Assembly: GCA_023131895.1 (NCBI GenBank)
Contig: JAGLYZ010000002.1
Location: 1 to 41,363 of the forward strand
Origin: Candidatus Parcubacteria bacterium
Lineage (GTDB): Bacteria; Patescibacteriota; Minisyncoccia; Minisyncoccales; JAGMDC01
Direction: 5' to 3'
DNA length: 41,363 nt
In this document: positions 3,537 to 34,114 of the stretch, piece by piece
Layout of the letters: every line of letters begins with the position of its first letter
Numbering within the stretch: the first letter of the stretch is position 1
Program-made: the position numbers and the translations under genes
The notes under the pieces: generated by a model
Told to the model about the DNA's origin: nothing
Seen by the model: only the letters and a program-made list of their open reading frames with translations
Database searches by the model: none

Positions 3537-3604
3537 AAAGATCAAGATAGATTTTTCAATTTTTTTGACTTAAAGCAAAAAATAGGATAACCTATAATTA
3601 GGTC

Positions 3605-3650
3605 AATTTTTAATTTTTCACTTTTCATTTTTAACTTGAGCGAAGCGAAT
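3605..3650 (+). promoter_or_regulatory. Conserved T-tract leader module upstream of lysS
   Basis: AATTTTTAATTTTTCACTTTTCATTTTTAACTTGAGCGAAGCGAAT: four T4-5 tracts with a 7-nt period, then AGCGAAGCG. Near-identical modules occur at 28271-28327 (minus, before rpmA) and 18644-18687 (before tRNA-Lys). A TATAAT at 3593-3598 would place the transcription start at the start of the module. Confidence 0.45.
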
Positions 3651-5290: not shown

Positions 5291-6547
5291 ATGCTTGACA
5301 TAAAATTTATCAGAGAAAATCCAGAAAAAGTTAAACAAGGTTGTCAAAAAAAGCAGGTCAAGGTTGATATTGATCAGATTTTGCTTTTGGATAAAAAAAG
5401 AAGAGGATTCCTTCAAAAAATAGATTCTTTACGTGCTGCCCAAAACAAGATTAGCGAAGGAGGAGGAAAAGATAAAGCCCAAATTGAGAAAGCAAAAGAA
5501 TTAAAAAATCAGATTAAAAAATTAGAAAAGGAATTTAAAAAAACTTATCAAGAGTTTAACGCTTTGATGCTCCAAGTTCCGAATTTACCTTTTGATGATG
5601 TGCCAGAAGGAAAAGATGAATCAGAAAATAAAGTTTTAAGAGAAGGGGGCAAGAAGCCGAAATTTGACTTTAAAAACAAGGATTATTTAGAAATTGCTCA
5701 AGATTTGGATTTAATTGATATCAAAAGAGCAGCCAAAGTTTCTGGTACAAGATTTGGTTATCTAAAAAACGAAGCAGTTTTGCTTGAGTTTGCATTAATA
5801 AATTTCGCTTTTGAGACATTAACAAAGGAGGGTTTTATTCCAATTATTCCTCCGGTGATGATAAAATCAGAAACAATGGAGGCAATGGGTTATATTGCCA
5901 CAAAAGAGGATTTAGCCGAAAGATATTTTTTTGAAAAAGATAATTTATTTTTAGTGGGAACAGCAGAGCAGTCAGTTGGACCAATGCATAAAGATGAGAT
6001 TTTTGAAGAAAATGACTTACCAAAAAGATATTTAGCTTTTTCAACTTGTTTCAGAGAAGAAGCAGGTTCTTATGGTAAGGATACCAAGGGAATACTTCGG
6101 GTTCATCAGTTTGATAAGGTTGAAATGTTTAGTTTTTGCAAACCTGACATTTCAAAGAGAGAACATGAATTTTTTCTGAGCTTAGAAGAAAAATTAATGA
6201 AGGCATTAAATCTTCCTTATCAGGTAGTCAAAAATTGTAGTGGTGATATGGCATTTCCTACTGCTATTCAATACGATATTGAAACATGGATTCCTTCTGA
6301 AGATAGATATAGAGAAACTCATTCTACTTCAAATTGCACAGATTTTCAGAGCAGACGATTAAATATCCGTTATCGCAATTCTAAAACTCAAAAATTAGAG
6401 TTTATTCATACTGTTAATGGTACTGCTTTTGCTATTGGAAGAATTTTAATTGCCATTTTAGAAAACTTCCAACAAAAAGATGGCTCTGTTTTAATCCCAA
6501 AAGTTTTACAGAAATACTTAGATTGTAAAATTATTTCTAAAAAATGA
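5291..6547 (+). CDS. serS: Seryl-tRNA synthetase
   Basis: MLDIKFIRENPE start, a long coiled-coil arm, and class II core motifs (FREEAGSYGKDTKGILRVHQFDKVE, TVNGTAFAIGRILIAILEN). Confidence 0.95.
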   Translation: MLDIKFIRENPEKVKQGCQKKQVKVDIDQILLLDKKRRGFLQKIDSLRAAQNKISEGGGKDKAQIEKAKELKNQIKKLEKEFKKTYQEFNALMLQVPNLPFDDVPEGKDESENKVLREGGKKPKFDFKNKDYLEIAQDLDLIDIKRAAKVSGTRFGYLKNEAVLLEFALINFAFETLTKEGFIPIIPPVMIKSETMEAMGYIATKEDLAERYFFEKDNLFLVGTAEQSVGPMHKDEIFEENDLPKRYLAFSTCFREEAGSYGKDTKGILRVHQFDKVEMFSFCKPDISKREHEFFLSLEEKLMKALNLPYQVVKNCSGDMAFPTAIQYDIETWIPSEDRYRETHSTSNCTDFQSRRLNIRYRNSKTQKLEFIHTVNGTAFAIGRILIAILENFQQKDGSVLIPKVLQKYLDCKIISKK

Positions 6548-7314
6548 AAACTTTAGTTATCCTTCACGGCTGGCAGAGTTCAAAAGAGAAATGGCAAACC
6601 GTAAAACAAGAACTCCAAAAACGCACCGAGAACGGTTCTCGGTGTGTTGAAATTAAGGTAATTATTCCTGATTTGCCGGGTTTTAAGAAAGAGACACAAT
6701 TAGACAGAGTTTGGGATTTAGATGATTATATTAAATGGTTAGAGAATTTTATTTCTGAAAATTCGAAAACCTCTTGCCCTGAGCTTGCCGAAGGGTTTTA
6801 TTTATTAGGTCACTCATTTGGCGGCAGAATGGCAATAAAATTCGCTGTCAAGCATCCAGAAAAACTAAAGGGCCTGATTTTAGTTTCTTCTGCCGGCATA
6901 AAACCAAAACAAAACATTTTCTACTTGACGTTTCTTGCGGTCGCAAAATTTGTCAAATCTATATTTTTAAAAATTCCTATATTGAAAAATTCTTTTCCCT
7001 TTTTTAGAAATATTTTTTATAAATATATTTTAAGAAAAACTGATTATTTAAAAGCAGAAAAATTGCCATATCTCCAAGAAACTTTTAAGAATATCATTAA
7101 AGAAGATTTAAGAGAGTATTTTTCTAAAATTAAAATCCCGACTTTAATTATCTGGGGCGATAAAGACAGAATGACCCTCTTAAAAGACGCTTATTTGATG
7201 AAAGAAAAAATAAAAGGTTCAGAATTAGAAATTATAAAAAATGTTGCCCACACTCCGCATTTAGAAAAACCAGAAATTTTAGCTCAAAAAATCATGAATT
7301 TCATTAAAAAATAA
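6544..7314 (+). CDS. Alpha/beta-fold hydrolase
   Basis: Nucleophile elbow GHSFGG (GxSxG), IWGDKDR, and a C-terminal AHTPHLE (catalytic His region). ATGA overlap with serS. Confidence 0.8.
   Translation: MKTLVILHGWQSSKEKWQTVKQELQKRTENGSRCVEIKVIIPDLPGFKKETQLDRVWDLDDYIKWLENFISENSKTSCPELAEGFYLLGHSFGGRMAIKFAVKHPEKLKGLILVSSAGIKPKQNIFYLTFLAVAKFVKSIFLKIPILKNSFPFFRNIFYKYILRKTDYLKAEKLPYLQETFKNIIKEDLREYFSKIKIPTLIIWGDKDRMTLLKDAYLMKEKIKGSELEIIKNVAHTPHLEKPEILAQKIMNFIKK
6624..6644. repeat. In-CDS perfect palindrome CACCGAGAAC-G-GTTCTCGGTG
   Basis: 10+1+10 nt perfect hairpin palindrome, about 62% GC, in-frame in the hydrolase gene (encodes TENGSRC). The 22-mer 6624-6645 is identical to 13917-13938. Confidence 0.9.
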
Positions 7315-8873: not shown

Positions 8874-9955
8874 ATAGTATGTTAAAAGTCAAAGAAATTA
8901 TTCAAAAAGAAATTTGGGAGGATTTTCTTTTAGGATGTGATGAAAAGACATTTCTGGATTCTTGGAATTGGGGAGAGTTTCAAAAAAAAATGGGCCAAAA
9001 AATTTGGCGCTTTGGAATTTACTTGTCCGCCGAAGCTTTAGCGAAGGAGGATGAAGTATCTAATCTCCTTACAGTAGCTTTGGTGATTAAAATTCAGGCA
9101 AAAAGAGGATCATTTTTGCTTGTGCCGCACGGACCCGTAATTAAGATTAATAAAGGACGGGCTTCTGTAATTACAGAAGCCCGTCCTTTGAAAGCTTTAT
9201 TAGACAAATTAAAAGAGATTGCCAAACAAGAAAAATGCAGTTTTATTAGGATAAGTCCGGTGTTTCAGAAAAATCAAGAAAATATTAAAGTTTTTAAAGA
9301 TTTAGGTTTTAGACAAGCGCCAATACATATGCATCCTGAAGCGAGCTGGAAATTAGATATTTCAGAGTCAGAACAAGAACTTTTAATGAATATGCGGAAA
9401 ACAACCCGTTATTTAATTAAACAGGCCCAAAAAAATAAAGATCTTGAAATAATTCAAAGCAGCAACATAAAAGATATTGAAATTTTTAACAAACTTTATC
9501 AAAAAGTGGTTAAATCCCAGCATTTTATCCCTTTTTCTTTAGATTATTTAAAGCAGGAGTTTTTGTCATTTCAGCAGGATAATCAAATATCTTTGTTTTT
9601 TGTAAAATATAATAAAGAAATAATTGCTTCAGCATTTGTGCTTTTTTGGTCAAAGATTGGTTTTTATCATCACGCGGCTTTATCTCCGAAATATCACAAA
9701 ATCCCGGCTGCATATCTTTTACAATGGGAAGCGATAAAAGAAGCAAAAAAGAGAGGATGTGTTTTATATGATTTTTGGGGCTATGTTAATCCAAAAGACC
9801 AGCCCAGGCATCCGTGGGCAGGGCCAACATTATTTAAAATGGGATTTGGAGGAAAAGCGTATGAATATGTCAAAACCCAGGATTTGGTTTTATCGCCGAA
9901 ATATTGGCTCACTTATATTATTGAAAAAATAAGAAAAACAAAACGCGGACTTTGA
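8870..9955 (+). CDS. FemAB-family peptidoglycan interpeptide-bridge aminoacyltransferase
   Basis: Typical FemX/FemAB N-terminus (FLDSWNWGEFQKKMGQKIW), MRKTTRYLIKQA, and a C-terminal PTLFKMGFGG. ATGA overlap with murF. Confidence 0.8.
   Translation: MNSMLKVKEIIQKEIWEDFLLGCDEKTFLDSWNWGEFQKKMGQKIWRFGIYLSAEALAKEDEVSNLLTVALVIKIQAKRGSFLLVPHGPVIKINKGRASVITEARPLKALLDKLKEIAKQEKCSFIRISPVFQKNQENIKVFKDLGFRQAPIHMHPEASWKLDISESEQELLMNMRKTTRYLIKQAQKNKDLEIIQSSNIKDIEIFNKLYQKVVKSQHFIPFSLDYLKQEFLSFQQDNQISLFFVKYNKEIIASAFVLFWSKIGFYHHAALSPKYHKIPAAYLLQWEAIKEAKKRGCVLYDFWGYVNPKDQPRHPWAGPTLFKMGFGGKAYEYVKTQDLVLSPKYWLTYIIEKIRKTKRGL
9152..9189. repeat. In-CDS 38-bp perfect palindrome
   Basis: AAAGGACGGGCTTCTGTAAT|TACAGAAGCCCGTCCTTT is exactly self-complementary, with a GC-rich outer stem. 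It is in-frame in the FemAB-like gene (encodes KGRASVITEARPL). Confidence 0.9.
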
Positions 9956-10824: not shown

Positions 10825-12579
10825 TTATTCAATGTAGTATACAAAGATGGAATAGCCGATTTTGGTAATAGGCTGGTATTTGTCAAGCCAGCGATAATGG
10901 TTTGAGGGCTGGTCAAAGCCCTTAACTGGTTCAGCTCTGCCGCCTTGCAAAGAGTTCACTGAAACAGCTAAATAATTTGTTTTTAACATATCATTAAGAT
11001 CTTGCGTGCCATGCCATGGGACGTATTTTTCTTTTAGATAGTATTCAGGATTGCCTCCGCCAAAATAATCAAGGTAAATTTTATTTACATTATTATCATC
11101 ACACCATTTTTTCAAGCGCTTTAAGTCCTGACCCCAATCAAGATTTGAATCAGTAACATATAAATATCCATTATCAGGTCCGCTAGCTAATTCATTAAAG
11201 TAAGCAAGAAAATGAGGAGAAACAGCCATTACTGAACCTGCCTGCCAGAAAATTAAAACAGCCAATATGCCATATTTTATTTTTAAAAATGGTTCTTTTA
11301 AATATTTTGTTATTGCTATGCTTATTAAAATAAAAATAAAAGGAAAAGTTGGCAGCAAATGGCGCACTCCAATATTTAAATTAGATGTTAAGCTTGTTGC
11401 CCAATAAATAATAATAAATAAAAGCATTGAAAATTCAGCAAAATGAGATTTTATCCATTCTTTGATTCTTTGAAATGGTTTTTTCCAAAATGGTTCCCTG
11501 ATATGCCAAGCCAGGCCTAAGAGAGCGATAATGGATAAAATATGAAGAGTTAGGGGTTCTTTAATTGAATAAACAACAGGGAAATAGGTTTTCCATCCAG
11601 CAGCTGAAATCTCTCCAAGAAAATAAGTTGTATTTCCAGTAGTGCTTCTATTAAGAACCATTATTATGCCTAAAAAGTATTGGGAAAACGGCCTTGTTGC
11701 CGGATTGGAGATCATTGCTATGTTTAAATCTGCTAATGGTTTAGGAACAGTTGTTGTGGAAAGAAGAAATTCAGTATCTCTTATCTGTTTTTCAATCGGG
11801 TAATTTAGAATGTGGTATTGATAGACAGGCCAGACAATAAAAATCATTCCAATTATTAAGACAAGAAAAGATAAAGCAATATATTTAAGCAGCTTCTTTT
11901 CATATAAGGCATAAATTAAAGTTATAATCCCAAAAAAAGGAAGCAATAAAATTAAAGAAAATTTTAAAAGCATTGAAACACCAAATGCCAAGCCGGCTAA
12001 AACTATGTTCTTTTTTACTGGTTCTTTCAAGAATTTTAACCAGAAACAAGTTGCTAAAACAACTCCAAAAGCAGCTCCAACATCAGTAGTTACTAATCTT
12101 CCATGGGCCAAGAAGGTAGGCGAGAAAGAAAATAGAAATAGAGCCAATAAAGCTGCTTTGTTTCCAAAGCTGTTTTTTGTCCATAAAAAAATCAATAATC
12201 CCAAAAGAACTAAAAGTAAAATCATTGGCAGGCGGGACCAAAACAAGATTTTGTCAGGATCATTTTCAGAATGGTATAGGAATTGGTTTCCGAAGTCAAA
12301 TTGAAGCCACCAAACAGGATTTCCTTCCTGTATCCAGGAACTGTGGTCTTTGGGAAAATTAAGATCTAAAAAGAGAAGCGGGAAAGCGGCTAAGTCCTTT
12401 ATTAAAGGCGGATGTTCAGCGTTTAAACGGTAATCTTTTTGAGTTAAGTATGAATAGCCGGAAGGAATATGAGAAACTTCATCAAAGGTTAATGTATCAT
12501 CTTTGATGCTTAAAAAAGCAGTAAAAAACATTACAAATAACAGTATGCCGGCAATAATGTAAGTAATTTTATTAGACAT
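10825..12579 (-). CDS. GT39/ArnT-like polyprenyl-phosphate-dependent glycosyltransferase (membrane)
   Basis: 584 aa with more than 10 TM helices. The first loop is DTLTFDEVSHIPSGYSY...EHPPLIK, typical of the PMT/ArnT (GT-C) family, and there is a C-terminal soluble domain. Confidence 0.8.
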   Translation of the reverse strand: MSNKITYIIAGILLFVMFFTAFLSIKDDTLTFDEVSHIPSGYSYLTQKDYRLNAEHPPLIKDLAAFPLLFLDLNFPKDHSSWIQEGNPVWWLQFDFGNQFLYHSENDPDKILFWSRLPMILLLVLLGLLIFLWTKNSFGNKAALLALFLFSFSPTFLAHGRLVTTDVGAAFGVVLATCFWLKFLKEPVKKNIVLAGLAFGVSMLLKFSLILLLPFFGIITLIYALYEKKLLKYIALSFLVLIIGMIFIVWPVYQYHILNYPIEKQIRDTEFLLSTTTVPKPLADLNIAMISNPATRPFSQYFLGIIMVLNRSTTGNTTYFLGEISAAGWKTYFPVVYSIKEPLTLHILSIIALLGLAWHIREPFWKKPFQRIKEWIKSHFAEFSMLLFIIIYWATSLTSNLNIGVRHLLPTFPFIFILISIAITKYLKEPFLKIKYGILAVLIFWQAGSVMAVSPHFLAYFNELASGPDNGYLYVTDSNLDWGQDLKRLKKWCDDNNVNKIYLDYFGGGNPEYYLKEKYVPWHGTQDLNDMLKTNYLAVSVNSLQGGRAEPVKGFDQPSNHYRWLDKYQPITKIGYSIFVYYIE

Positions 12580-12587
12580 ATTTATAT

Positions 12588-12710
12588 TCAGAATAAATTA
12601 GATAGTAAGTTTAAAATAAGACCAAAAGCTAATTCCCAAAATATTGAGAAAGCTATAACGCTGATAACAGCTATCAAAATAAGTAATAATAGTTTTTGTT
12701 TATTCATCAT
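12588..12710 (-). CDS. Possible 40-aa hydrophobic micro-protein between the two GT39 genes
   Basis: Manual translation gives MMNKQKLLLLILIAVISVIAFSIFWELAFGLILNLLSNLF*. The start overlaps the stop of the upstream GT39 gene (ATGATGAATAA). No Shine-Dalgarno site; it is too short for the ORF track. Confidence 0.3.
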   Translation of the reverse strand: MMNKQKLLLLILIAVISVIAFSIFWELAFGLILNLLSNLF

Positions 12711-14259
12711 TGATTTTATAAACCCAAACTGAATCCTCGTTTGCTAACTCTCCTTTAGGAAAAGCAGTTTGAAGCTCTTGAATTGTTTTTTCATTATTAT
12801 CCATCAAAACTATAACTGTCTGCCTTTTATCCGGTTTTATCGCGTTTAAATTATCTTGAAAGACATAGCCTGTCCTTATCTCTTTATTCTTTGTTTTTTC
12901 AATAAAAACAATAGTCTCAACAGGCAATGGAAGATGCGGGCCTGATTCATTTACAATAACATATTTTTGCGTTTCTTCTGAAACAGAATTTAAATACATT
13001 CCAATTTCTACGCATTCTTTTGAAAAGGATCTTTCTACTTCTGGATTTTTCCCCCAGAAAATAAAATATCTGTAATATTGTGTAAAGACAAAAGAAATTA
13101 CTAATAAAACAGAAGCTAGGATTATTAAATAATAAACCCAATCTTTCTTTTTATCTTTTAAAAGATTCTTAGATTTTCTATAAACAAACTCTCCTCCTAT
13201 ACCAACAAAGATAAAAGCGAAAGGAATAGCTCCAATGCATCTTAGAGAATGTGGGATGCCTTCATAGGTTAAGATGCCTGGAACCAGCATTATAAAAAAA
13301 CTAAAGACTAGAAATGAGAAAGGAAAAAATGATTTTTTTAGGATTTTTTTAAAGCTTAAAATCAAGCCGATTAAAAATAATATTCCCACTGGCCAGAATA
13401 AAACAGGGGAGCCGGAAATATTATGGCGCCAATTATAATCGCCCGCAATATTAAACATTGCTGAATGGATAATAAAGCTCTTTCCTAATTCCTTAATCGG
13501 CTCTGGTTGGGAAAAAATTGAAATTCCAGTAGTCCTGCTTACAAAATTTTCAGGGTTTTCAAGGAAATAAAATCCAATAGGCGCGGCAATAATAAAAGTA
13601 AAAAGTAAAAATGAAGAAGTAAAAACCAGGAATTCTTTTTGCAGGTTTTGCTTTCTGTAAATCAACCACCACAAAATAAGAATTACAGGGATAATTAGAA
13701 CAGCTAATCTAAAAGCAATATAAGTATGGAAGCCCAAGCCAAAGATTATGCCGGCAATTATAAAATAAGAGATCTTCTTTGTTCTAAAACCTTTAAATAA
13801 AAAATAAAAAGAAAAGGTTAGGACAAAAGGAACTAAAATAGCCCTAAAGCCGATATGAGAGAAATTAATATGCCATAAGCTTGTCGCTAAAAAGAAAGAA
13901 GCAAAAAGAGCAATACACCGAGAACGGTTCTCGGTGTATTGAGAAAACAATTCCTTTGTTAAAAGATAAAGGCCGAGAACAGTGAGAATGCCGAAAAAAG
14001 CAGAAACAACCTTAAATGACCAAATACTTATGCCAAAAACAGAAAAAGACAGAGCGATTAGATTAATGAATAATCCTTCTCTGCCATTGTTTTCCGGGTA
14101 AAATATTTTTCCAGGTTCAGTAATTGCTTGATTGGCGTTGATAGCTTCATCAGGATAAATTCCAGGCGGAATTGTCTCTATCTGCCATAACCGGAAAAAA
14201 ACAGCTAGGGCAATAATCAATAAAAGCAAAATTAAAAGTTTTGAACTTTTTGGCAACAT
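12700..14259 (-). CDS. GT39/ArnT-like glycosyltransferase (second copy)
   Basis: 519 aa and polytopic. The N-terminal loop PPGIYPDEAINANQA is characteristic of ArnT/GT39-family proteins. Confidence 0.8.
   Translation of the reverse strand: MLPKSSKLLILLLLIIALAVFFRLWQIETIPPGIYPDEAINANQAITEPGKIFYPENNGREGLFINLIALSFSVFGISIWSFKVVSAFFGILTVLGLYLLTKELFSQYTENRSRCIALFASFFLATSLWHINFSHIGFRAILVPFVLTFSFYFLFKGFRTKKISYFIIAGIIFGLGFHTYIAFRLAVLIIPVILILWWLIYRKQNLQKEFLVFTSSFLLFTFIIAAPIGFYFLENPENFVSRTTGISIFSQPEPIKELGKSFIIHSAMFNIAGDYNWRHNISGSPVLFWPVGILFLIGLILSFKKILKKSFFPFSFLVFSFFIMLVPGILTYEGIPHSLRCIGAIPFAFIFVGIGGEFVYRKSKNLLKDKKKDWVYYLIILASVLLVISFVFTQYYRYFIFWGKNPEVERSFSKECVEIGMYLNSVSEETQKYVIVNESGPHLPLPVETIVFIEKTKNKEIRTGYVFQDNLNAIKPDKRQTVIVLMDNNEKTIQELQTAFPKGELANEDSVWVYKINDE
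13911..13941. repeat. In-CDS 31-nt perfect palindrome CAATACACCGAGAAC-G-GTTCTCGGTGTATTG
   Basis: 15+1+15 perfect hairpin palindrome with the same core as 6624-6644. It is in-frame in the minus-strand GT39 gene (encodes YTENRSRCI). Confidence 0.9.
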
Positions 14260-14838: not shown

Positions 14839-14842
14839 GAAT

Positions 14843-14877
14843 CATTCTAACATATTAACATTTAAACATATAAACAT
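14843..14877 (+). repeat. Four tandem 8-nt AACAT repeats immediately upstream of the DUF3467 gene
   Basis: cattCTAACATA TTAACATT TAAACATA TAAACATA tg, with a period of 8 nt. The same repeat type occurs at 17351-17431. Confidence 0.8.
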
Positions 14878-17350: not shown

Positions 17351-17431
17351 CATTTTAACATTCTAACATACAAACATTTTAACATTCTGAATTTGAATTT
17401 TGTTAATATGTTTAAATGTTAATATGTTTAT
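17351..17431. repeat. Imperfect 80-nt inverted repeat built from 4+4 AACAT octamers in the dnaK-dnaJ spacer
   Basis: The left arm is TTTAACAT TCTAACAT ACAAACAT TTTAACAT. The right arm is the inverse of ATAAACAT ATTAACAT TTAAACAT ATTAACAA. The right arm ends directly at the dnaJ ATG. Confidence 0.8.
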
Positions 17432-18514
17432 ATGATGCCTGAAGATTATTATCAAATACTTGGCATTGCTAGGAATGCCAATCAAGAAGAAATAAAAAAA
17501 GCATATAGAAAGCTGGCTCATAAACACCATCCGGATAAGGGAGGAAGTGAGGCAAAGTTTAAAGAGATAAACGAGGCATATCAGGTTCTTTCTAATAAAG
17601 ATAAGCGAGCCCAGTATGACCGTTTTGGCAGAACATTTGATGGCGCTGGTCAAGGTTTTGACCCGGGTTTTGATTTTGGCGCCGGGTTTGGTGGTGAAGA
17701 ATTTGGAGATTTTGGCGATATAGGGGAGATATTCGAAGAATTTTTTGGGACAGGTTCTGCAGACAGGAGAAAGAAAGACCTAAAAAGAGGAAAAGATATT
17801 GAAATTGACATTGAGATTCCATTAGAAGCAGTTTTAAAAAGCCAAGAGAAAAAAATTACACTTTATAAAATGGTTGTTTGTTCCCGCTGTAATGGAATTG
17901 GAGCTGAACCAGGAACTTCTGTAAAAGAATGTTTTACCTGCCGCGGCACAGGACAGGTTCAGCAGATAAAAAGAACGATTTTTGGCTCTGTAACCCGTTA
18001 TGTTATCTGCCCTGAATGCGGAGGAGAAGGAACAAAGCCGGAAAAACCTTGTAATGTTTGCAAAGGCCAAGGAAGGATCAAAAAAGAGGAAGAAATTATT
18101 CTCTATATTCCTGCTGGCGTTGATACCAATCAAGTGATAAAAATTGAAGGAAAAGGCGATGCTGGCGAAAAGGGAGGACAAGCAGGTGATTTATATGTCA
18201 GAATTCTTGTGAAAAAACACCATCTTTTTATAAGAAGAGGCGATGATTTATACATTTTAATTCCTATTTCTTTTTCACAGGCAGTTTTAGGAGATGAAAA
18301 AGAAGCGCCAACCCTAGAAGGCAAAAAGATTTTATTAAAAGTGCCAAGCGGCACTGAATCAGGAAAGGTCTTGCGAATTTCTGGAAAAGGCATTCCTCGT
18401 TTTGCTGGCTTTGGCAGGGGAAATATGTATGTAGAATTAGAAATAGAAACGCCAAAGAAATTAACAAGAACACAAAAAGAATTATTAAAAAAATTGAAGG
18501 AAGAAGGAATGTAA
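17432..18514 (+). CDS. dnaJ: Co-chaperone DnaJ
   Basis: J-domain (DYYQILGI...HHPDK), a G/F-rich linker, and four CxxCxGxG zinc-finger repeats. Confidence 0.95.
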
Positions 18515-18541
18515 AAGTAAAAAGTAAGGATAAATTTCCTG

Positions 18542-18639
18542 CTGCGAAAACAAAATTTTTAGAATCGCTTATCCCTAAAATTTGCTTTGCAAATTTTGCT
18601 CGCCCACACCTGCGATTTAAAAATTTGTTTTCTTCGCAG
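18542..18639. repeat. Intergenic inverted-repeat element, family copy B
   Basis: CTGCGAAAACAAAATTTTTAGAATCGC (18542-18568) is the imperfect inverse of GCGATTTAAAAATTTGTTTTCTTCGCAG (18612-18639). An internal perfect hairpin AAAATTTGC-TTT-GCAAATTTT lies at 18577-18597. The termini are shared with the copies at 25829-25932 and 28573-28702. Confidence 0.7.
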
Positions 18640-18643
18640 AAAT

Positions 18644-25788: not shown

Positions 25789-25828
25789 TAAAATAACTAA
25801 AAAGTTAAAACGAGATTTTTTCTAGCTC

Positions 25829-25932
25829 CGAAAACAAAATTTTTCAAATTCAGCCCCCCTTCGCCCTTTGGGCTTTGCCCTTCGGGCTTCGCCGCGCCCA
25901 AACCCCAGAATTTGAAAAATCTGTTTTCTTCG
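25829..25932. repeat. Intergenic inverted-repeat element, family copy C
   Basis: CGAAAACAAAATTTTTCAAATTCAG (25829-25853) is the imperfect inverse of CAGAATTTGAAAAATCTGTTTTCTTCG (25906-25932). The core is very GC-rich with small hairpins (GCCC-TTT-GGGC, GCCC-TTC-GGGC). The right arm carries TTGAAA-16-TATTAC just before rplI. Confidence 0.7.
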
Positions 25933-25943
25933 CTATTACGATT

Positions 25944-26391: not shown

Positions 26392-28011
26392 ATGCCAAGA
26401 CTTATTTTTATTGCCGGCGGTGTAATGTCAGGCATTGGCAAAGGGATAGCTACAGCATCAATAGGAAAAATTTTACAAAGTAAAGGATTTAGAGTAACAG
26501 CGGTTAAAATTGATCCATATATTAATATTGATGCGGGTACAATGAACCCTATTGAACATGGAGAGGTTTTTGTAACTGATGATGGCGTGGAATGCGATCA
26601 GGATATTGGAAATTACGAAAGATTTTTCAACGCAGATTTATCAACTATTAATTATATTACTACTGGCAGAGTTTATCAGGCAGTAATAAACAGAGAGAGA
26701 AATTTAGAATATGGAGGTAGATGTGTTGAAGTTGTCCCAGATATTCCCAATGAAGCCATTTCCAGAATATTAAAATCAGCCAAAAAGAACAAGGCTGATT
26801 TTGTTTTGGTTGAGATTGGAGGAACAGTAGGCGAGTACCAAAATATGTTGTTTTTAGAAGCAGCAAGATTGACAAAGCTTCGCTATCCAAAAAATGTTCT
26901 TTTTATTTTGGTAAGTTATTTGCCAATTCCAAAAATGATCGGCGAAATGAAAACAAAGCCAACACAGAACGCAGTAAGATTATTAAATGAGGCCGGCATA
27001 CAGCCAGATATTATTTTAGGCCGTTCCCAATTTCCATTAGATGAACCGAGGAAAAGAAAAATTTCAATTTTTTGCAATGTAAATATTAAAGATGTAATTT
27101 CTGCGCCTGATATTAAATCAATTTACGAGGTGCCAATGAATTTTGAAAAAGAGAAGTTAGGCAATCAGATTTTGAAAAAGTTTAATTTGAAGCCAAGAAA
27201 AAGTAATTTGGAAAAATGGGAGAAAATAGTAAAAATCATAAATAGAAAGAAAAAACCAGTTAAGATAGGAATAGTTGGCAAGTATTTTGAAACAGGGAAG
27301 TTTACGTTAATGGACTCTTATATTTCAGTAATTGAGGCAGTAAAGCATGCTTCGTGGTTTTATAACAGGGAGCCGGAGATTCATTGGATAGCAGCTGGAA
27401 GCTTTGAAAGAAATTCAAAATCTTTAAAAGAATTAAAAAAATATGACGGGATTATTGTTCCAGGAGGTTTTGGCAGTAGGGGAATAGAAGGTAAGATAAA
27501 AGCCATTGAGTTTTGCAGAAAAGAAAAAATCCCTTTTTTAGGGCTTTGTTTAGGAATGCAGTTAGCAGTAATTGAATTTGCGCGGAATGTCTGCGGTCTA
27601 AAAAAAGCAGGATCTACTGAATTTACATCTCATTGCCAAAAATCAATAATTGATGTAATGCCTGAACAAAAAGTTCTTTTGAAAGAAAAAAAATATGGCG
27701 GGACTATGCGGTTAGGCGCTTATAACTGCGAGCTAAAAACAGGCACTAAGAGCTGGAAGAGTTACAAGATGGTGAAATACATTTCTGAGCGCCATAGGCA
27801 CCGTTACGAGCTAAATAATGAGTTTAAGAACGTTTTAGAAAGCAACGGTATGCTTATGGCTGGTATAAATCCAGAAAAGGACTTGGTAGAAATTATAGAA
27901 TTAAAAAAACACCCTTTCTTTATCGGTGTGCAGTTTCATCCAGAATTTAAATCAAGATTTTTGAATCCCCATCCATTATTCAAAGAATTTATTAAGGCGT
28001 CTCTACATTGA
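26392..28011 (+). CDS. pyrG: CTP synthase
   Basis: [27 protein letters not shown], the glutaminase domain GLCLGMQ, and HRHRYE. The preferred start is ATG 26392 (MPRLIFI), 1 nt after the rplI stop. Confidence 0.95.
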
Positions 28012-28270
28012 CCTTTTTAACTATCCGCTGGCTTTTATCAAACTTTATTTTTCTTTTAGTAATAAACTTAACAATGCCTTCTTTAACAGCATAAAGGGTG
28101 TCATCGTTTCCTCGTCTGACATTTGTTCCAGGAAGAAACTTTGTTCCGCGCTGGCGAATAATAATACTGCCTGCATTTGCTTTCTGGCCGCTATAAAGCT
28201 TAACCCCTAAATATTTGGGCCTAGAATCTCTTCCTAATTTTGTTGCACCAGTTGCTTTTGTCTTAGACAT
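27992..28270 (-). CDS. rpmA: Ribosomal protein L27
   Basis: [20 protein letters not shown]...[16 protein letters not shown]. The 3' end overlaps the pyrG 3' end by 20 nt (convergent). Confidence 0.95.
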
Positions 28271-28327
28271 GTTCCTTCACTTCGTTCAGTCAAGTTAAAA
28301 ATTAAAAGTGAAAAATTAAAAATTAAC
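28271..28327 (-). promoter_or_regulatory. T-tract leader module upstream of rpmA
   Basis: The minus strand reads GTTAATTTTTAATTTTTCACTTTTAATTTTTAACTTGACTGAACGAAGTGAAGGAAC-ATG. It is near-identical to the lysS leader over about 35 nt. Confidence 0.45.
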
Positions 28328-28572: not shown

Positions 28573-28702
28573 GAACCAAATTTTTCAAATTTTTACGGTT
28601 TGCTCGGATTCCAAATTTTCCTTGCGCTTTACCCTAAAGGGCTCCGACGCGTCTTCGGAAAATTCAGAATCCTCACTAACCTAATTTGAAAAATTTGTTT
28701 TC
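28573..28702. repeat. Intergenic inverted-repeat element, family copy D
   Basis: GAACCAAATTTTTCAAATT (28573-28591) is the inverse of AATTTGAAAAATTTGTTTTC (28683-28702). A nested inverted repeat pairs GGATTCCAAATTTTCC (28606-28621) with GGAAAATTCAGAATCC (28657-28672). The centre is GC-rich. Confidence 0.7.
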
Positions 28703-28725
28703 AGAGCAAGAATTATTAATTTTTT

Positions 28726-29670: not shown

Positions 29671-30345
29671 ATGAAAAAGAAGACACCTCATCATTTAGGC
29701 ATTATTTTAGATGGCAATAGAAGATGGGCAAAAGAAAGGAACTTGCCTGTTTTTGAGGGTCATAAAAAGGGCAGGGAAAAGGTGAAAAAAATTATAAAGG
29801 CTTGTAAAAACAAAGGAATAAAAATTCTAACATTATTTGTTTTTTCTACTGAAAATTGGAAAAGACCAAAAAAAGAAGTTGATTATTTAATGGAACTGAT
29901 TAAAGGCATTATAGGTCTTAAAGAGCTTGACAAACAAGGAATTAAGGTTGTAGTAATTGGTCAGAAAGAGAAATTATCCAATGGCATTCAAAAGGTGATA
30001 GAGAATGCTGAAAAAATTACTAAGAACAACAAGGCAATGATTTTAAATATAGCCTTAAGCTACGGAGGCAGGGCGGAAATCGTTGAAGCAATAAAAAATA
30101 TAATTAAAAAGAAAATTTCTTTAGAAAAAATTGATGAAAATATAATTTCCAAAAATCTTTGGACATCCGACCTTGATTTAATTATCAGGACTGGCAAAGA
30201 GAAACGGATTTCTAATTTTTTAATCTGGCAGGCAGCCTATTCTGAAATTTTCTTTTTTGATAAATATTGGCCTGATTTTACTGAAAAGGATTTAGATAAA
30301 GCTATTAATGAATATTCTCGCCACCTTCGCCGCTTCGGGGAGTAA
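29671..30345 (+). CDS. uppS: Undecaprenyl-diphosphate synthase (cis-prenyltransferase)
   Basis: HLGIILDGNRRWAKERNL, FVFSTENWKRP, IRTGKEKRISNFLIWQAAYSE, and a C-terminal RRFG. Confidence 0.92.
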   Translation: MKKKTPHHLGIILDGNRRWAKERNLPVFEGHKKGREKVKKIIKACKNKGIKILTLFVFSTENWKRPKKEVDYLMELIKGIIGLKELDKQGIKVVVIGQKEKLSNGIQKVIENAEKITKNNKAMILNIALSYGGRAEIVEAIKNIIKKKISLEKIDENIISKNLWTSDLDLIIRTGKEKRISNFLIWQAAYSEIFFFDKYWPDFTEKDLDKAINEYSRHLRRFGE

Positions 30346-30408: not shown

Positions 30409-30437
30409 GGCTCGTTTAAATCTTGATTTAAACGAGC
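30409..30437 (-). terminator. Strong hairpin terminator, best on the minus strand and possibly bidirectional
   Basis: 12-bp perfect stem GCTCGTTTAAAT / ATTTAAACGAGC with a 5-nt loop. On the minus strand it is followed by CCCTTTTTTTCG. Confidence 0.7.
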
Positions 30438-30745: not shown

Positions 30746-31690
30746 TTAATCTTTGATACCATGATATTTTTGGTGTATTTCTTTTAGGTGAGGCTTGGTA
30801 ACGTGGGTATATATTTGAGTAGTAACTATATTACGATGGCCTAGAAACTCTTGTACAACTCTTAAATCAACACCTTTCATAAGTAGATCGGTTGCAAAAC
30901 TATGCCTAAGTGTGTGGCAGGAAGTGGTTATAGGGAGTCCGGCTAAAATAGCGTATTTTTTAACTGTACGTTCCATGCTTCTTACATTTAAACGAGTTCC
31001 AGGGTTTTTCCCTCTATAGTTTATAAATAGAGCTTTTTCTTTGTCATTACGTATCTCTAAATACTTTCTAAGCCAGTTAATAGTTCTTTCTGATAAATAA
31101 ACAGTTCGAGGATGACCTCCTTTGCCTATAATACTAATCTCTAATTCCTTAGTATCAGGTTTTATTTTAATTTGGTCTCGATTAAGATTTACTAATTCTG
31201 CAACTCTTAATCCTGTAGAAAAAAAGGTTTCTAAAATGGCTTTATCTCTCAGATCTCTTATATTTGAGGTCTTAGACGCGTCTAAAAGCTTTTTGACTTG
31301 TTCTAAAGTAAGAAAATTTACAGTTCTTTCTTCTTTTTCTTTAGGTAGTTTTATCTTTTCTGGTGGAAGAGATAAAATATCTTTTTCAGTGAAATAACTT
31401 AAAAGTGACCTTAAAGCAATTAAATAATAATTTTGTGTTGAACGTTTTAAAGGTTTTTTATCCTTCTGAAGATATTGGCGAGAAAGAAATAATCTATATT
31501 TCCAGATATGATCTGTTGTTAGTTCATGTGGTTTTATATTTTCTATTTTATTTATCTTTAGAAAATCAAAAAACTTTTTCAAAAATCTTGAATAGTTTTC
31601 TTGACTTTTATCAGAAAGACCTTTTTCTAACTCTAACCAATCTAAATAGTCAGAAAAGAGGACTTTAATAGGTTGGTCAATTTTGTTCAT
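30746..31690 (-). CDS. Tyrosine site-specific recombinase, XerC/XerD family
   Basis: 314 aa. N-terminal SAM-like core-binding domain; catalytic residues R (GLRVAEL), HxxR (HTLRHSFAT), and H..Y (LGHRNIVTTQIYTHV). Confidence 0.85.
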   Translation of the reverse strand: MNKIDQPIKVLFSDYLDWLELEKGLSDKSQENYSRFLKKFFDFLKINKIENIKPHELTTDHIWKYRLFLSRQYLQKDKKPLKRSTQNYYLIALRSLLSYFTEKDILSLPPEKIKLPKEKEERTVNFLTLEQVKKLLDASKTSNIRDLRDKAILETFFSTGLRVAELVNLNRDQIKIKPDTKELEISIIGKGGHPRTVYLSERTINWLRKYLEIRNDKEKALFINYRGKNPGTRLNVRSMERTVKKYAILAGLPITTSCHTLRHSFATDLLMKGVDLRVVQEFLGHRNIVTTQIYTHVTKPHLKEIHQKYHGIKD

Positions 31691-34113: not shown

Positions 34114-34114
34114 T

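Follow-up and report, generated by a model that had tools for sequence, protein, structure and literature searches.

A GC-rich perfect palindrome lies in frame in a hydrolase gene of a Candidatus Parcubacteria bacterium, and an exact stretch of it recurs in an unrelated gene. What kind of element is this, and what keeps it in coding sequence? In the window (the whole 41,363-nt stretch of DNA that was analysed), the palindrome at 6624-6644 is CACCGAGAAC-G-GTTCTCGGTG, with 10+1+10 arms and a GC content of 62% (13/21), and it reads T28-E-N-G-S-R-C34 in the hydrolase, just as a sequence-only reading had described it. That reading also reported an exact 22-mer repeat at 13917-13938 inside a minus-strand GT39 gene. 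The repeat is exact and lies within a PMT_2-family (GT39/83-like) gene, where it reads TENRSRC, but its coordinates are 13916-13937. The core GAGAACNGTTCTC is found exactly five times in the window (starts 6628, 13920, 32576, 33039, and 33057). In 100 dinucleotide-preserving shuffles, GAGAAC-N-GTTCTC has a mean of 0.00 and a maximum of 0, so the claim that five cores are far above chance holds. Allowing up to two mismatches adds no site in the window, where 0.85 are expected. Since solitary GAGAAC half-sites are no commoner than expected (14 vs 13.7), the palindrome is the unit; a DNA-uptake-sequence reading is rejected for the same reason. The copies in the window and their host genes are as follows.

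6544 to 7314, plus strand: alpha/beta hydrolase gene (Abhydrolase_1/6; identified by Pfam, orthologue alignment, and AlphaFold2)
6620 to 6648: family A element in the hydrolase gene, AACGCACCGAGAAC-G-GTTCTCGGTGTGTT, with the perfect core at 6624-6644, in frame as R-T-E-N-G-S-R-C
12700 to 14259, minus strand: PMT_2-family (GT39/83-like) glycosyltransferase gene (Pfam PF13231, translation)
13911 to 13941: family A element in the PMT_2 gene, CAATACACCGAGAAC-G-GTTCTCGGTGTATTG, a perfect 31-mer (15+1+15)
32566 to 34149, minus strand: gene for glutamyl-tRNA synthetase GltX (Pfam PF00749, PF19269)
32576 to 32588: single 13-nt core GAGAACAGTTCTC at the 3' end of gltX, R-E-L-F-S directly ahead of the stop
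33039 to 33069: family A doublet in the GltX linker, GAGAACTGTTCTC-CTTAG-GAGAACAGTTCTC, two short cores in one 31-nt nested palindrome
39510 to 39544, minus strand: degenerate family A copy near the 5' end of a MurL-like gene, ..CACTACGAGG-ACAGA-CCTCGCTCG.., read as S-H-Y-E-D-R-P-R-S-I

These repeats are a genuine family of miniature palindromes and not the product of chance, as had been proposed from the sequence; they lie in frame in unrelated genes. The reading frame is identical for four of the five exact cores (GAG AAC NGT TCT, E-N-x-S), and the fifth (32576) uses another frame at the GltX C-terminus. The proposed size of about 21 nt was too small. The full unit is a palindrome of 29-31 nt, (C)AAYRC-NN-CGAGAAC-N-GTTCTCG-NN-GYRTT(G); the family is called A here. 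Three of the window copies are long (hydrolase, PMT_2 glycosyltransferase, and MurL-like gene) and three are short cores (GltX), and all six are inside ORFs. To our knowledge, the GAAC-N1-GTTC spacing is unlike that of the LexA Cheo box (GAAC-N4-GTTC), CIRCE, the NrdR box, or parS.

The hydrolase copy (29 nt, 14+1+14, with a single G/T mismatch) makes up residues 27-34, matches the covariance model at 6617-6651 with 43.6 bits, and forms a DNA hairpin of -12.5 kcal/mol (z = -4.8). The PMT_2 copy (48 bits; -14.6 kcal/mol, z = -8.0) reads Q-Y-T-E-N-R-S-R-C-I on the minus strand, in a loop between predicted membrane segments. In GltX, the cores at 33039 and 33057 are the two halves of the nested palindrome (-15.1 kcal/mol, z = -6.7), which encodes I-E-N-C-S-P-K-E-N-S-S-Q in a hypervariable linker and is conserved in the orthologue of the JBARPC01 MAG. 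The core at 32576 alone is a weak hairpin (-2.4 kcal/mol, z = -1.3), and at the gltX 3' end the JBARPC01 MAG has a doublet across the stop codon instead of a single core. The degenerate MurL-like copy scores 23.2 bits (E ~2e-4), and codon alignment places a perfect ACTACGAGAAC-A-GTTCTCGTAGT of the JBARPC01 orthologue (L091 4747-4769) on these codons.

Related loci are numbered with L; the sample amounts to about 1 Mb and, apart from L001, represents a single syntenic neighbourhood of the chromosome. With the covariance model, six copies are recovered in the window, and about 20 of the 91 related loci yield some 35 distinct ones. Minisyncoccales/Parcubacteria MAG relatives have family copies at the same sites of the same genes, and intergenic copies as well. 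The JBARPC01 MAG carries the 21-mer between convergent genes and also adjoining tRNA-Glu. L001, on a different contig from the sampled neighbourhood, has three copies in 8 kb, one of which donates a TAG stop to an FN3-domain gene. The earlier proposal that the elements colonise coding sequence therefore stands as to in-frame copies in unrelated genes but not as to coding specificity, given the intergenic 21-mer in JBARPC01.

Copies at unlinked places can be identical or nearly so. The hydrolase copy of L084 is identical to the copy at 2233 in L001, and a near-identical 31-mer, CAATACTACGAGAA(C)-N-(G)TTCTCGTAGTATTG, is found in the PMT_2 gene of L033 and the hydrolase gene of L087, with nothing similar beyond its ends. 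Changes also appear concerted within genomes, the basis being two genomes only: both long window copies (hydrolase and PMT_2) contain CACCGAGAAC, and three JBARPC01 copies have AACACTACGAG(G/A)AC in common, two of them being identical 29-mers on separate contigs. Sub-types CACCGAGAAC, CTACGAGRAC, and CATCGAGAAC exist side by side in JBARPC01. The CACC state is also found in L085 and L083 and is partly inherited from a common ancestor.

Direct traces of movement were sought too. Comparison of flanks found no target-site duplications and no direct repeats beside the copies, and the sampled loci offered no clean empty/filled pair resolved to the nucleotide. Orthologues of the L001 FN3-domain gene were sought for empty intergenic sites; the best match is just 58% identical, which makes a nucleotide-level comparison of junctions impossible. 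Neither the window nor the 61 kb of sequence sampled for its species yielded a transposase or a hairpin-binding enzyme. A RAYT (IS200/IS605-type Y1 HUH) was likewise absent from the window, these 61 kb, and L092/L093. As to a phage link, a search of IMG/VR viral contigs for exact matches to the two 21-mer variants found none.

The hydrolase allows the ancestral state to be judged. Of about 80 orthologues at a greater distance, about 70 lack the block and retain the 33-residue HGW..PGF spacing, so the block is a derived addition. Block-bearing hydrolases fall in at least four clusters, interleaved with empty ones, and separate clusters carry the element at exactly the same codon, implying that random insertion would need either a site preference or repeated precise loss. 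In the AlphaFold2 model (mean pLDDT 85), the block is placed at a helix end and the loop that follows (helix 15-29, strand 37-40), in agreement with a loop position. The peptide in orthologues is always encoded by palindromic or visibly decaying palindromic DNA, so the sequence-only reading withstands its own refuting condition, a conserved peptide encoded without palindromy. The PMT_2 and GltX linker copies do not lengthen their proteins and occupy a variable loop that already existed. Tolerated peptide insertion, as first suggested, thus describes the hydrolase but not PMT_2 or the GltX linker, where copies sit in an existing loop. The intragenic copies probably have no host function, and their peptide would be a passenger, with the hydrolase working without the block in most relatives.

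The arms of orthologous copies differ in sequence and still retain perfect pairing over 14-15 bp. Among hydrolase orthologues the arms differ and each copy is perfect (e.g., AACACTACGAGGAC... in L084, AATACAACGAGAAC... in L089, and ...GAGAAG-A-CTTCTC... in L090). Between the PMT_2 copies of the window, L084, and L085 there are 3-4 differences per arm, all compensated. In a set of 26 copies, pairing extends to 87% of cells, both sides have changed in 61 pair cells vs 24±3.5 in shuffles (0/500), and the covariation score is 0.386 vs at most 0.133 in slid controls. Amino acids encoded by the two arms change in pairs that preserve DNA pairing (T..R, I..Q, Y..R-S). At four-fold third positions, identity of the window to L033, L081, L054, and L066 is down at 0.36-0.48, which means saturation. 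Despite this saturation, L033 has 14-bp perfect arms and L054 has 13-bp outer arms. Decayed copies are also found, in L083 (5/15 mismatches), in L066, and in the MurL-like gene of the window. Such lineage-dependent decay agrees with an active process that lineages may lose. Taken together, the alignments indicate that the copies are old and are kept symmetric by compensated changes, which goes beyond passive tolerance of insertions.

The explanation preferred here, with a probability of roughly 0.55, is that these are DNA palindromes similar to REP and RPE (Rickettsia palindromic element), tolerated in protein loops, whose symmetry is actively kept at the DNA level. The 21-mer would be the core of a near-perfect palindrome of 29-31 bp belonging to a family found in one clade of Minisyncoccales/Parcubacteria (CPR) genomes. 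Copies occur in two settings. Just 3' of genes, the hairpin with the T-run of some copies resembles a terminator and is able to donate a TAG stop; inside housekeeping genes, copies would survive only in flexible loops and linkers, in one hydrophilic, stop-free frame (Q-Y-Y/T-E-N-x-S-R-S/C-I). Once established, a copy is inherited at one site for very long with its arms held exactly complementary. Via the hairpin, one arm could serve as template for its partner (intramolecular template switching, in replication or repair), or a copy could be overwritten from other genomic copies, or both. Asymmetric variants may end up as larger palindromes (doublets and 'family B') through inverted duplication. 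The mode of spread and the template-switch or conversion mechanism are what we infer from these patterns; for the upkeep of symmetry, hairpin-templated copying or overwriting from other copies is most likely the cause.

Palindromy could instead be selected, a tentative and less probable explanation. One CPR clade would then keep a genome-wide set of DNA or RNA hairpins of about 30 bp, many of them deliberately in essential genes, for a conserved factor that recognises a hairpin or dyad. Such a factor might act in replication termination or chromosome organisation near the terminus, in antisense suppression, or as a domesticated hairpin transposase. If this is true, a nucleic-acid constraint overrides the amino-acid sequence of host proteins, and a host factor that reads the hairpins would make them a new kind of cis-element system, in a phylum where experimental genetics hardly exists.

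Somewhat less probable again is that the copies are cis sites for a dimeric DNA-binding protein, either matS/parS-like or an operator set, with the long arms as a by-product. matS is a 13-bp odd palindrome and is often intragenic. Here the symmetric core CGAGAAC-N-GTTCTCG is invariant, with 7-bp half-sites at strictly fixed spacing, GAG.A...T.CTC is invariant across genomes, and core codons are conserved at synonymous positions while the flanks are saturated. The invariance would suit recognition by a conserved, functional host factor equally well. The context is possibly that of a terminus: at about 30.4 kb, gene orientation and GC skew switch convergently, and a 28-bp 11-6-11 palindrome (30410-30437) lies beside an Xer-type recombinase gene, so that the sampled region may be a chromosome terminus. 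The link to dif is suggestive, but the syntenic JBARPC01 locus lacks this site, and a 13-nt match inside pyrG is conserved coding sequence. The core is fixed, but variants of it (GAGGAC/GTCCTC, GAGAAG/CTTCTC, GAGAAT/ATTCTC) are tolerated if paired, and several sub-types coexist within one genome (JBARPC01). Furthermore, the arms co-vary to 14-15 bp, unrelated palindromes occupy the same protein loops in other genomes, and the density is six copies in 41 kb and, on another contig, three in the 8 kb of L001.

At a similarly low level stands a role as functional RNA hairpins, namely terminators or attenuators (including antisense ones), RNase III or other processing sites, or mRNA stabilisers; selection on RNA structure would then preserve the pairing. 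Intergenic copies lie directly 3' of genes or a tRNA, some with a T-run (L087 and the L001 copies at 2233 and 5578); T8 directly follows the intergenic copy at 7004-7020 in L087. A scan with a terminator consensus flags L001 2233-2261 and 5578-5622 and leaves L001 3422-3450 unflagged; of the intragenic copies it flags 13941-13911 and 6644-6624, on the minus strand only. Intergenic copies may act as intrinsic terminators. Hairpins are also stable and covariation is strong. However, pairing is nearly strictly Watson-Crick: among the non-Watson-Crick cells of the 12 inner pairs, 10 of 37 are G-U, without enrichment of wobble, and the single mismatches in the sense strand of L085 and L086 are A/C. 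A 1-nt centre and exact symmetry of both strands are not needed for RNA, and most hydrolase orthologues do without the block. T-runs beside intragenic copies perhaps reflect only Lys/Phe-rich, AT-biased coding. At gathering thresholds Rfam finds rRNA and tRNAs only in the window, with no family matching the palindromes.

It is quite improbable that nothing has moved, each palindrome having formed in place by template-switch inverted duplication in error-prone lineages, with the likeness among copies due to convergence or to common ancestry of short words. Look-alikes of half-elements do occur natively (EAKELL at the GltX C-terminus is close to AGAGAACTGTTCTC), empty hydrolase sites read ..L-E-N/K-x-G-I.., the same genomes contain numerous unrelated palindromes, and the nested doublets resemble inverted duplications. 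Against this are the identical 29-31-mers in unrelated genes and contigs (L084 hydrolase and L001 2233, and nearly so L033 PMT_2 and L087 hydrolase), the 29-mer of another palindrome family, D, shared by a Mur ligase gene and a FemAB gene, and the 12 fixed core bases found five times with none expected. An ancestral or selected peptide (an N-x-S sequon or loop motif) with incidental DNA palindromy is hardly credible: Y-Y/T-E-N-x-S-R-S/C does recur in the same frame in several proteins, always with N-x-S in the GAGAAC type, but most orthologues lack the block, it is present in cytoplasmic enzymes (hydrolase, GltX), the same DNA is also intergenic and in another frame, amino acids of both arms change jointly to keep DNA pairing, and Asn is lost in E-D-x-P variants. 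A function of N-x-S as an N-glycosylation sequon is likewise rejected, since the palindrome forces it, cytoplasmic enzymes have it, and E-D-x-P variants lose it.

Several known systems resemble the tolerated, symmetry-keeping palindromes preferred here. Short intragenic palindromic repeats are already known in other phyla, as intragenic REPs and short RPEs (PMC3733652). REPs and REPINs are hairpin repeats of 20-40 bp with many dispersed copies, mostly just 3' of ORFs; they form inverted doublets that give a larger hairpin, have co-existing sub-families, and persist for long at orthologous sites (PMC3733652, PMC3116915). Their GTAG- and CGTC-tagged families are mobilised by RAYT tyrosine (HUH) transposases, whose genes the repeats usually flank. 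Intragenic GTAG/CGTC REPs in loops as well as REP-derived TAG stops are documented (PMC3733652, PMC3116915). The present elements share with them the dispersed stem-loop unit of 29-31 nt (hairpin z of -4.8 to -8.0), the inverted doublets (GltX), the donated TAG stop (L001), and the terminator-like positions. REPs, however, are palindromic only imperfectly and leave a GTAG or CGTC at one end unpaired (PMC3733652), whereas the present elements are symmetric to their ends; GTAG, where found, is paired with CTAC in the stem, and window copies have GGTG in its place. Most sampled copies, including six of six in the window, are intragenic rather than predominantly extragenic, and the CPR phylum is not among the phyla from which REPs are reported.

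RPEs are in-frame palindromic repeats in unrelated housekeeping genes that encode a conserved passenger peptide with which the proteins still function, and also occur extragenically (PMC10969869); short ones, RPE-4/6, are known (PMC3733652). The in-frame, tolerated extra peptide in unrelated genes (hydrolase, PMT_2, GltX, MurL-like, and others) is alike in both. Classical RPEs are imperfect palindromes of about 100-150 bp (30-50 residues) found in Rickettsia only, whereas the present elements have 29-31 bp (8-10 residues) and perfect, compensated arms; the distinction drawn here is by length and host. Template switching creates and maintains perfect hairpins, with multi-base compensated changes in one step (PMC8794818). 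Its perfect arms, outward arm growth, and inverted duplications match the arm covariation and nested doublets here, but it is a mutational mechanism, not a family, and alone does not account for identical 29-31-mers at unlinked loci. In Nematomorpha mitochondrial genes, coding perfect inverted repeats keep both function and strict DNA symmetry (PMC6649704). Those repeats reach 284 bp, lie in conserved protein regions of animal mitochondria, and form no dispersed family. MITEs differ too: here a single palindrome, centred on 1-3 nt, makes up the entire element, with no TIR-flanked internal region and no flanking direct repeats. HIP1 of cyanobacteria, GCGATCGC, is a short palindrome over-represented in coding sequence and conserved at the DNA level; it has 8 bp without extended arms and is thought to be tied to a methyltransferase or a repair bias. 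Its copy number is orders of magnitude higher than that of the present family.

A literature search of limited scope found no account of palindromes in coding regions of Parcubacteria, Patescibacteria, or CPR. CPR/Patescibacteria genomes are tiny and tightly packed, and a family of repeats that persists chiefly as in-frame copies in housekeeping genes is informative for that reason. The palindromic family would account for a share of the lineage-specific peptide insertions in CPR proteins, and annotators and phylogeneticists should be cautious with such blocks, which appear to be driven by DNA and not by protein. The family also shows, with unusual clarity, compensated evolution from arm to arm beyond synonymous saturation in a natural setting, permitting template switching or gene conversion to be tested against selection as the keeper of perfect hairpins.

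Palindromes of other kinds are found in the same genomes. A count of perfect palindromes with arms of 10 bp or longer gives 88 over 970 kb, vs 4.3 in Markov shuffles, and more than half are inside ORFs. The window has this example:

9152 to 9189: unrelated perfect palindrome in a FemAB-family gene, 38 nt (19+0+19), in frame

Its DNA hairpin has -20.7 kcal/mol (z = -9.2), and relatives have other palindromes in this loop of the FemAB protein. This shows that the phenomenon is not restricted to one family. The family B unit GAGAACGGGTCTC is one base from GAGAACGGTTCTC of family A and always exists as an inverted doublet (L087, L003), and GltX doublets are found in L091 at 11045-11075 and 11526-11556. 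The family D 29-mer is found in the Mur ligase gene of L093 and the FemAB gene of L083.

The main result of this analysis is the covariation between the two arms of the family A element, the palindrome around the core GAGAAC-N-GTTCTC. In the window, GAGAACNGTTCTC occurs exactly five times, where the sequence-only reading had placed it, and not once in 100 dinucleotide-preserving shuffles. Allowing up to two mismatches adds no further window site. Solitary GAGAAC half-sites are not enriched (14 observed vs. 13.7 expected in the window), indicating that the palindrome, and not a word, is the repeated unit.

Family A copies in the window
6624-6644, core of the hydrolase copy, CACCGAGAAC-G-GTTCTCGGTG, in frame in ORF 6544-7314, read T-E-N-G-S-R-C
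6620-6648, full 29-mer of the hydrolase copy by arm extension, single G/T mismatch
13911-13941, perfect 31-mer in a PMT_2 gene by arm extension, CAATACACCGAGAAC-G-GTTCTCGGTGTATTG
33039-33069, gltX linker, two cores 18 nt apart forming the halves of one 31-nt nested palindrome
39510-39544, degenerate copy in a MurL-like gene found with the covariance model, read S-H-Y-E-D-R-P-R-S-I

ORF 6544-7314 encodes an alpha/beta hydrolase (Pfam), and its in-frame core reads as first described. The exact 22-mer does recur in the minus-strand PMT_2 (GT39/83-like glycosyltransferase) gene, where the copy is read T-E-N-R-S-R-C; its true position is 13916-13937, one base from that first given. The palindrome is likewise real, and the 21 nt first assigned to it is too small, since arm extension gives 29-31 nt. 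The gltX linker cores lie between the catalytic and anticodon-binding domains (peptide I-E-N-C-S-P-K-E-N-S-S-Q), and a third gltX core is found directly before the stop codon in a different frame (R-E-L-F-S). Folded as single-stranded DNA, the long window copies form hairpins of -12.5 to -15.1 kcal/mol (z = -4.8 to -8.0). At the gltX 3' end, the isolated 13-mer folds weakly when taken by itself. The covariance model of the family, R1, was built on 26 copies and recovers the known window copies as well as 39510-39544. In JBARPC01, a related Minisyncoccales MAG, these codons of the MurL-like orthologue form the perfect palindrome ACTACGAGAAC-A-GTTCTCGTAGT.

In a scan of one genome per species, the exact 21-mer pattern matched only JBARPC01. 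Both sites are intergenic: one forms the middle of a perfect 45-nt palindrome that lies between convergent genes, and the other lies six bases past the 3' end of tRNA-Glu. The comparison DNA (about 1 Mb; its loci carry L numbers) consists of 80 hydrolase-orthologue loci from metagenomes, eight more obtained by exact protein match, the syntenic gltX region of JBARPC01, and 20 kb flanking the window in a same-species assembly. R1 has matches in about 20 of these related loci, with about 35 distinct copies in all. Intergenic copies are mostly directly 3' of genes. On L001, another JBARPC01 contig, those at 2233-2261 and 5578-5622 carry a terminator-like flag, and the copy at 2233-2261 overlaps the end of an FN3-domain gene and supplies its TAG stop. 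Another, at 7004-7020 of L087, is followed by T8. The elements are thus not specific to coding sequence, which corrects the proposal of a family that colonises it.

The element behaves as a discrete unit. The PMT_2 31-mer of L033 and the hydrolase 31-mer of L087 are identical at 29/31 positions, both differences fall in the central three bases, and similarity ends at the 31-mer boundaries. The JBARPC01 hydrolase 29-mer has an identical copy on another contig of the same MAG. Both long window copies have CACCGAGAAC and three JBARPC01 copies have AACACTACGAG(G/A)AC. This within-genome likeness, seen in two genomes, is suggestive of concerted change; part of the CACC state is common to L085 and L083 too, which makes the likeness partly inherited.

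Copies at the orthologous hydrolase site
L084 (JBARPC01), AACACTACGAGGAC-A-GTCCTCGTAGTGTT, 14+1+14
L087, CAATACTACGAGAA-CAC-TTCTCGTAGTATTG, 14+3+14
L089, AATACAACGAGAAC-A-GTTCTCGTTGTATT, 14+1+14
L090, AATACTACGAGAAG-A-CTTCTCGTAGTATT, 14+1+14
L004, ATCGAGAAC-A-GTTCTCGAT, 9+1+9
L088, GAGAAT-G-ATTCTC, 6+1+6
L085 and L086, one A/C mismatch in each

The left arms at the PMT_2 site are CAATACACCGAGAAC in the window, CAACACTACGAGAAC in L084, and CAATACATTGAGAAC in L085, each perfectly paired with its own right arm, so that residues encoded by the two arms change in concert (T..R-C, Y..R-S, and I..Q-C). Covariation was counted over a 15-pair helix in 26 copies, with 500 column shuffles and slid partners as controls. 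Paired cells make up 87%. The number of cells changed on both sides is 61, against 24±3.5 in the column shuffles (0/500 as high), a count partly biased by ascertainment because a copy could be found by the core pattern only if its 6-bp core was palindromic. This selection did not act on the outer nine pairs, and copies at orthologous sites were picked by gene position, decayed ones included. The covariation score is 0.386 vs. at most 0.133 with slid partners.

Four-fold third-position identity at conserved codons between the window and L033, L081, L054, and L066 is 0.36-0.48, which corresponds to saturation; L033 nevertheless retains 14-bp perfect arms. In the PMT_2 orthologue of L054/L055 (about 18525-18598), 13-bp outer arms remain perfect around a 39-nt GC-rich central insertion encoding T-T-T-R-P-P-R-P-P-T-S-W-A-P; this is an element nested in a family A element. 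Decayed copies exist as well (L083 PMT_2, with 5/15 mismatches, L066, and the window MurL copy). Perfect arms past saturation together with decay elsewhere indicate that symmetry is actively kept in some lineages and lost in others.

By sequence comparison, the hydrolase block is a derived state, since about 70 of about 80 more distant orthologues have a constant 33-residue HGW-PGF spacing (..L-E-K-x-G-I-R-V..); the spacing is 35-48 residues in close relatives. The idea of a tolerated peptide insertion therefore holds for the hydrolase but needs correcting for PMT_2 and the gltX linker, where the element adds no protein length and the DNA of distant orthologues, not palindromic there, encodes a variable loop about as long. 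In the AlphaFold2 model of the hydrolase (mean pLDDT 85), confidence dips at residues 27-34, the final turn of helix 15-29 and the loop preceding strand 37-40, in agreement with the loop placement looked for. In a rough neighbour-joining tree with the block masked, block-bearing hydrolases form at least four clusters interleaved with block-free ones. This implies that the block was gained several times at one codon or else precisely lost several times, a lead only, as the tree is crude. Note that two reading frames of the long consensus are open and the third has a stop (TAG). All long intragenic copies use the hydrophilic open frame (Y-Y-E-N-x-S-R-S), the pattern that selection for loop-compatible peptides would leave.

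Family A is thus a non-chance family with defined ends, intergenic and intragenic copies, frame bias, long persistence, compensated arm evolution, and lineage-specific decay. We infer that its elements are REP/RPE-like selfish or near-neutral DNA whose arm symmetry is kept by a DNA-level process. Pairing that is almost strictly Watson-Crick, equivalent strands, a single-base centre, and the lack of a G-U excess favour the DNA over the RNA level (G-U makes up 10/37 non-Watson-Crick cells of the inner 12 pairs, a small sample in which the rows are oriented arbitrarily). The best candidate for this upkeep would be intramolecular template switching through the hairpin, perhaps assisted by overwriting from other copies. 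In single events, template switching yields compensated changes of several bases, makes stems perfect, extends the arms, and gives rise to inverted duplications (PMC8794818). No transposase was found in 61 kb of the window species (window and flanks), no target-site duplication in the flanks of copies, and no clean empty/filled pair (the best orthologue match of the FN3-domain gene is only 58% identical), so rival explanations are real. For intergenic copies, a role at the RNA level, for example in termination or processing, is plausible, given the terminator-like flags that a consensus scan places on some of them. A dimeric DNA-binding protein could instead read the invariant 15-bp core, attractive in a window that may hold a replication terminus, but sub-types coexist, core variants stay paired, and the dif-like site described below is not conserved in JBARPC01.

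The window (GC about 32%) comes from a CPR lineage whose nearest named relatives are Minisyncoccales/Parcubacteria MAGs. Its gene content by Pfam and RNA annotation is housekeeping: 23S/5S rRNA end, MreC/D, PBP2, LysS, SerS, and the hydrolase, then Mur ligases, FemAB, FtsQ, two PMT_2 genes, GrpE-DnaK-DnaJ, and tRNAs, and finally PyrG, UppS, a Xer-type recombinase, GltX, MurG, FtsW, MurD, and MraY. Positions 1-446 hold the final 290 nt of the 23S rRNA gene and the whole 5S rRNA gene, with mreC directly downstream.

Candidate dif site
30410-30437, 28-bp perfect palindrome, 11+6+11, dif-like layout, GCTCGTTTAAA-TCTTGA-TTTAAACGAGC

This palindrome sits in a 400-nt gap between the convergent genes uppS (29671-30345, +) and the Xer-type tyrosine recombinase (30746-31690, -). 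Exactly there (about 30.4 kb), both the direction of the genes and the cumulative GC skew flip, making it a possible dif site and replication terminus. The same-species assembly has an identical palindrome (L093 20311-20338); the syntenic locus of JBARPC01 lacks it, with xer directly adjoining uppS.

The closest known systems are REP/REPIN elements and RPEs. REPs and family A have in common size, hairpin, doublets, and positions 3' of genes; REPs are also documented within genes, in loops, and as donors of TAG stops (PMC3733652, PMC3116915). RPEs are in-frame palindromic passengers of housekeeping genes (PMC10969869). However, family A lacks the unpaired GTAG/CGTC tag that defines the REP super-families, does not follow the extragenic habit of REPs, and matches RPEs in neither size nor host. 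No description of such elements in CPR/Patescibacteria was found in the literature searched. What sets family A apart is its perfect symmetry, its mostly intragenic placement in a streamlined genome, and the covariation of its arms, documented between genomes that are saturated at synonymous sites.

Family A is part of a wider palindrome habit of these genomes. A census of 970 kb for perfect palindromes, each arm having 10 bp or more with no fewer than 4 G/C, gave 88 vs. 4.3 in Markov shuffles, more than half of the 88 wholly within ORFs of at least 90 codons.

Palindrome in the window FemAB-family gene
9152-9189, 38-nt perfect palindrome, AAAGGACGGGCTTCTGTAATTACAGAAGCCCGTCCTTT, in frame, read K-G-R-A-S-V-I-T-E-A-R-P

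The FemAB variable loop holds unrelated palindromes in L083, L085, L087, and L054/55, and the 29-mer AAAATACACAGGTC-N-GACCTGTGTATTTT is found in both a Mur ligase of the window species and the L083 FemAB. The family B unit GAGAACGGGTCTC differs by one base from the family A core GAGAACGGTTCTC and is invariably an inverted doublet, giving a palindrome with 20-25 bp arms. It occurs at the L003 hydrolase site and the L087 PMT_2 site, exactly where relatives carry family A, and looks like an asymmetric mutant re-symmetrised through inverted duplication.

A second repeat in the window hydrolase, 6780-6798 (CCCTGAGCTTGCCGAAGGG, residues about 77-84, S-C-P-E-L-A-E-G), has a GCCCT/AGGGC stem around GAGCTTGYCGA, a conserved loop of 11 nt. 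If up to 4 mismatches are allowed, the repeat is found at about nine unrelated positions (L003 3873, L014, L021, L063, L069 twice, L079, and L091), read in frame as C-P-E-[LPF]-[AVI]-E-G; the L014 copy has a 15-bp stem. The block is present in many hydrolase orthologues and missing from others. Several Parcubacteria genomes also have perfect palindromes of even length (22-40 nt, mostly 34-40) with CGATCG or CGGCCG at the centre (e.g., TGTAATAGATTTCTTCCGATCGGAAGAAATCTATTACA), 6/9 of which are not wholly within an ORF (intergenic or at gene ends).

CGATCG/CGGCCG-centred palindromes
L087, 12745-12782, 13422-13443, 14027-14066
L089, 2073-2096, 7559-7594
L054, 11543-11578
L064, 13678-13711
L004, 7007-7044
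L008, 2392-2427

Palindromes of the type (TCG)AGCACTCA-N4-TGAGTGCT(CGA) are found in L083 (982-1003, 8669-8696), L085 (662-683), and L086 (465-492), with none seen in the window; they resemble CIRCE/HrcA operator arms, although the spacer is far shorter. A motif with 8-nt periodicity (..CATTCTAACATATTAACATTTAAACAT..) forms arrays, direct and inverted and not CIRCE-like, which lie in the grpE/DUF3467-gene and dnaK/dnaJ gaps of the window (14841-14877, 17351-17385, 17401-17436) and may be regulator binding arrays of chaperone genes. A 43-nt inverted repeat pair (GTCAATTTTTAATTTTTCACTTTTCATTTTTAACTTGAGCGAA, 3602-3644 and 28285-28327, 91% complementary, 24.6 kb apart) is directly upstream of lysS (+) and the small ORF 27992-28270 (-), which is L27 by synteny with L091, and may be a common promoter or leader. 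Intergenic repeats of about 30 nt, TTTCCTGCTGCGAAAACAAAATTTTTAGAAT (18535-18565, 25819-25849) and TTTAAAAATTTGTTTTCTTCGCAGAAAT (18616-18643, 25912-25939, 28686-28713), stand ahead of tRNA-Lys, rplI, and an FAD-oxidoreductase gene and may likewise represent a common promoter or leader motif.
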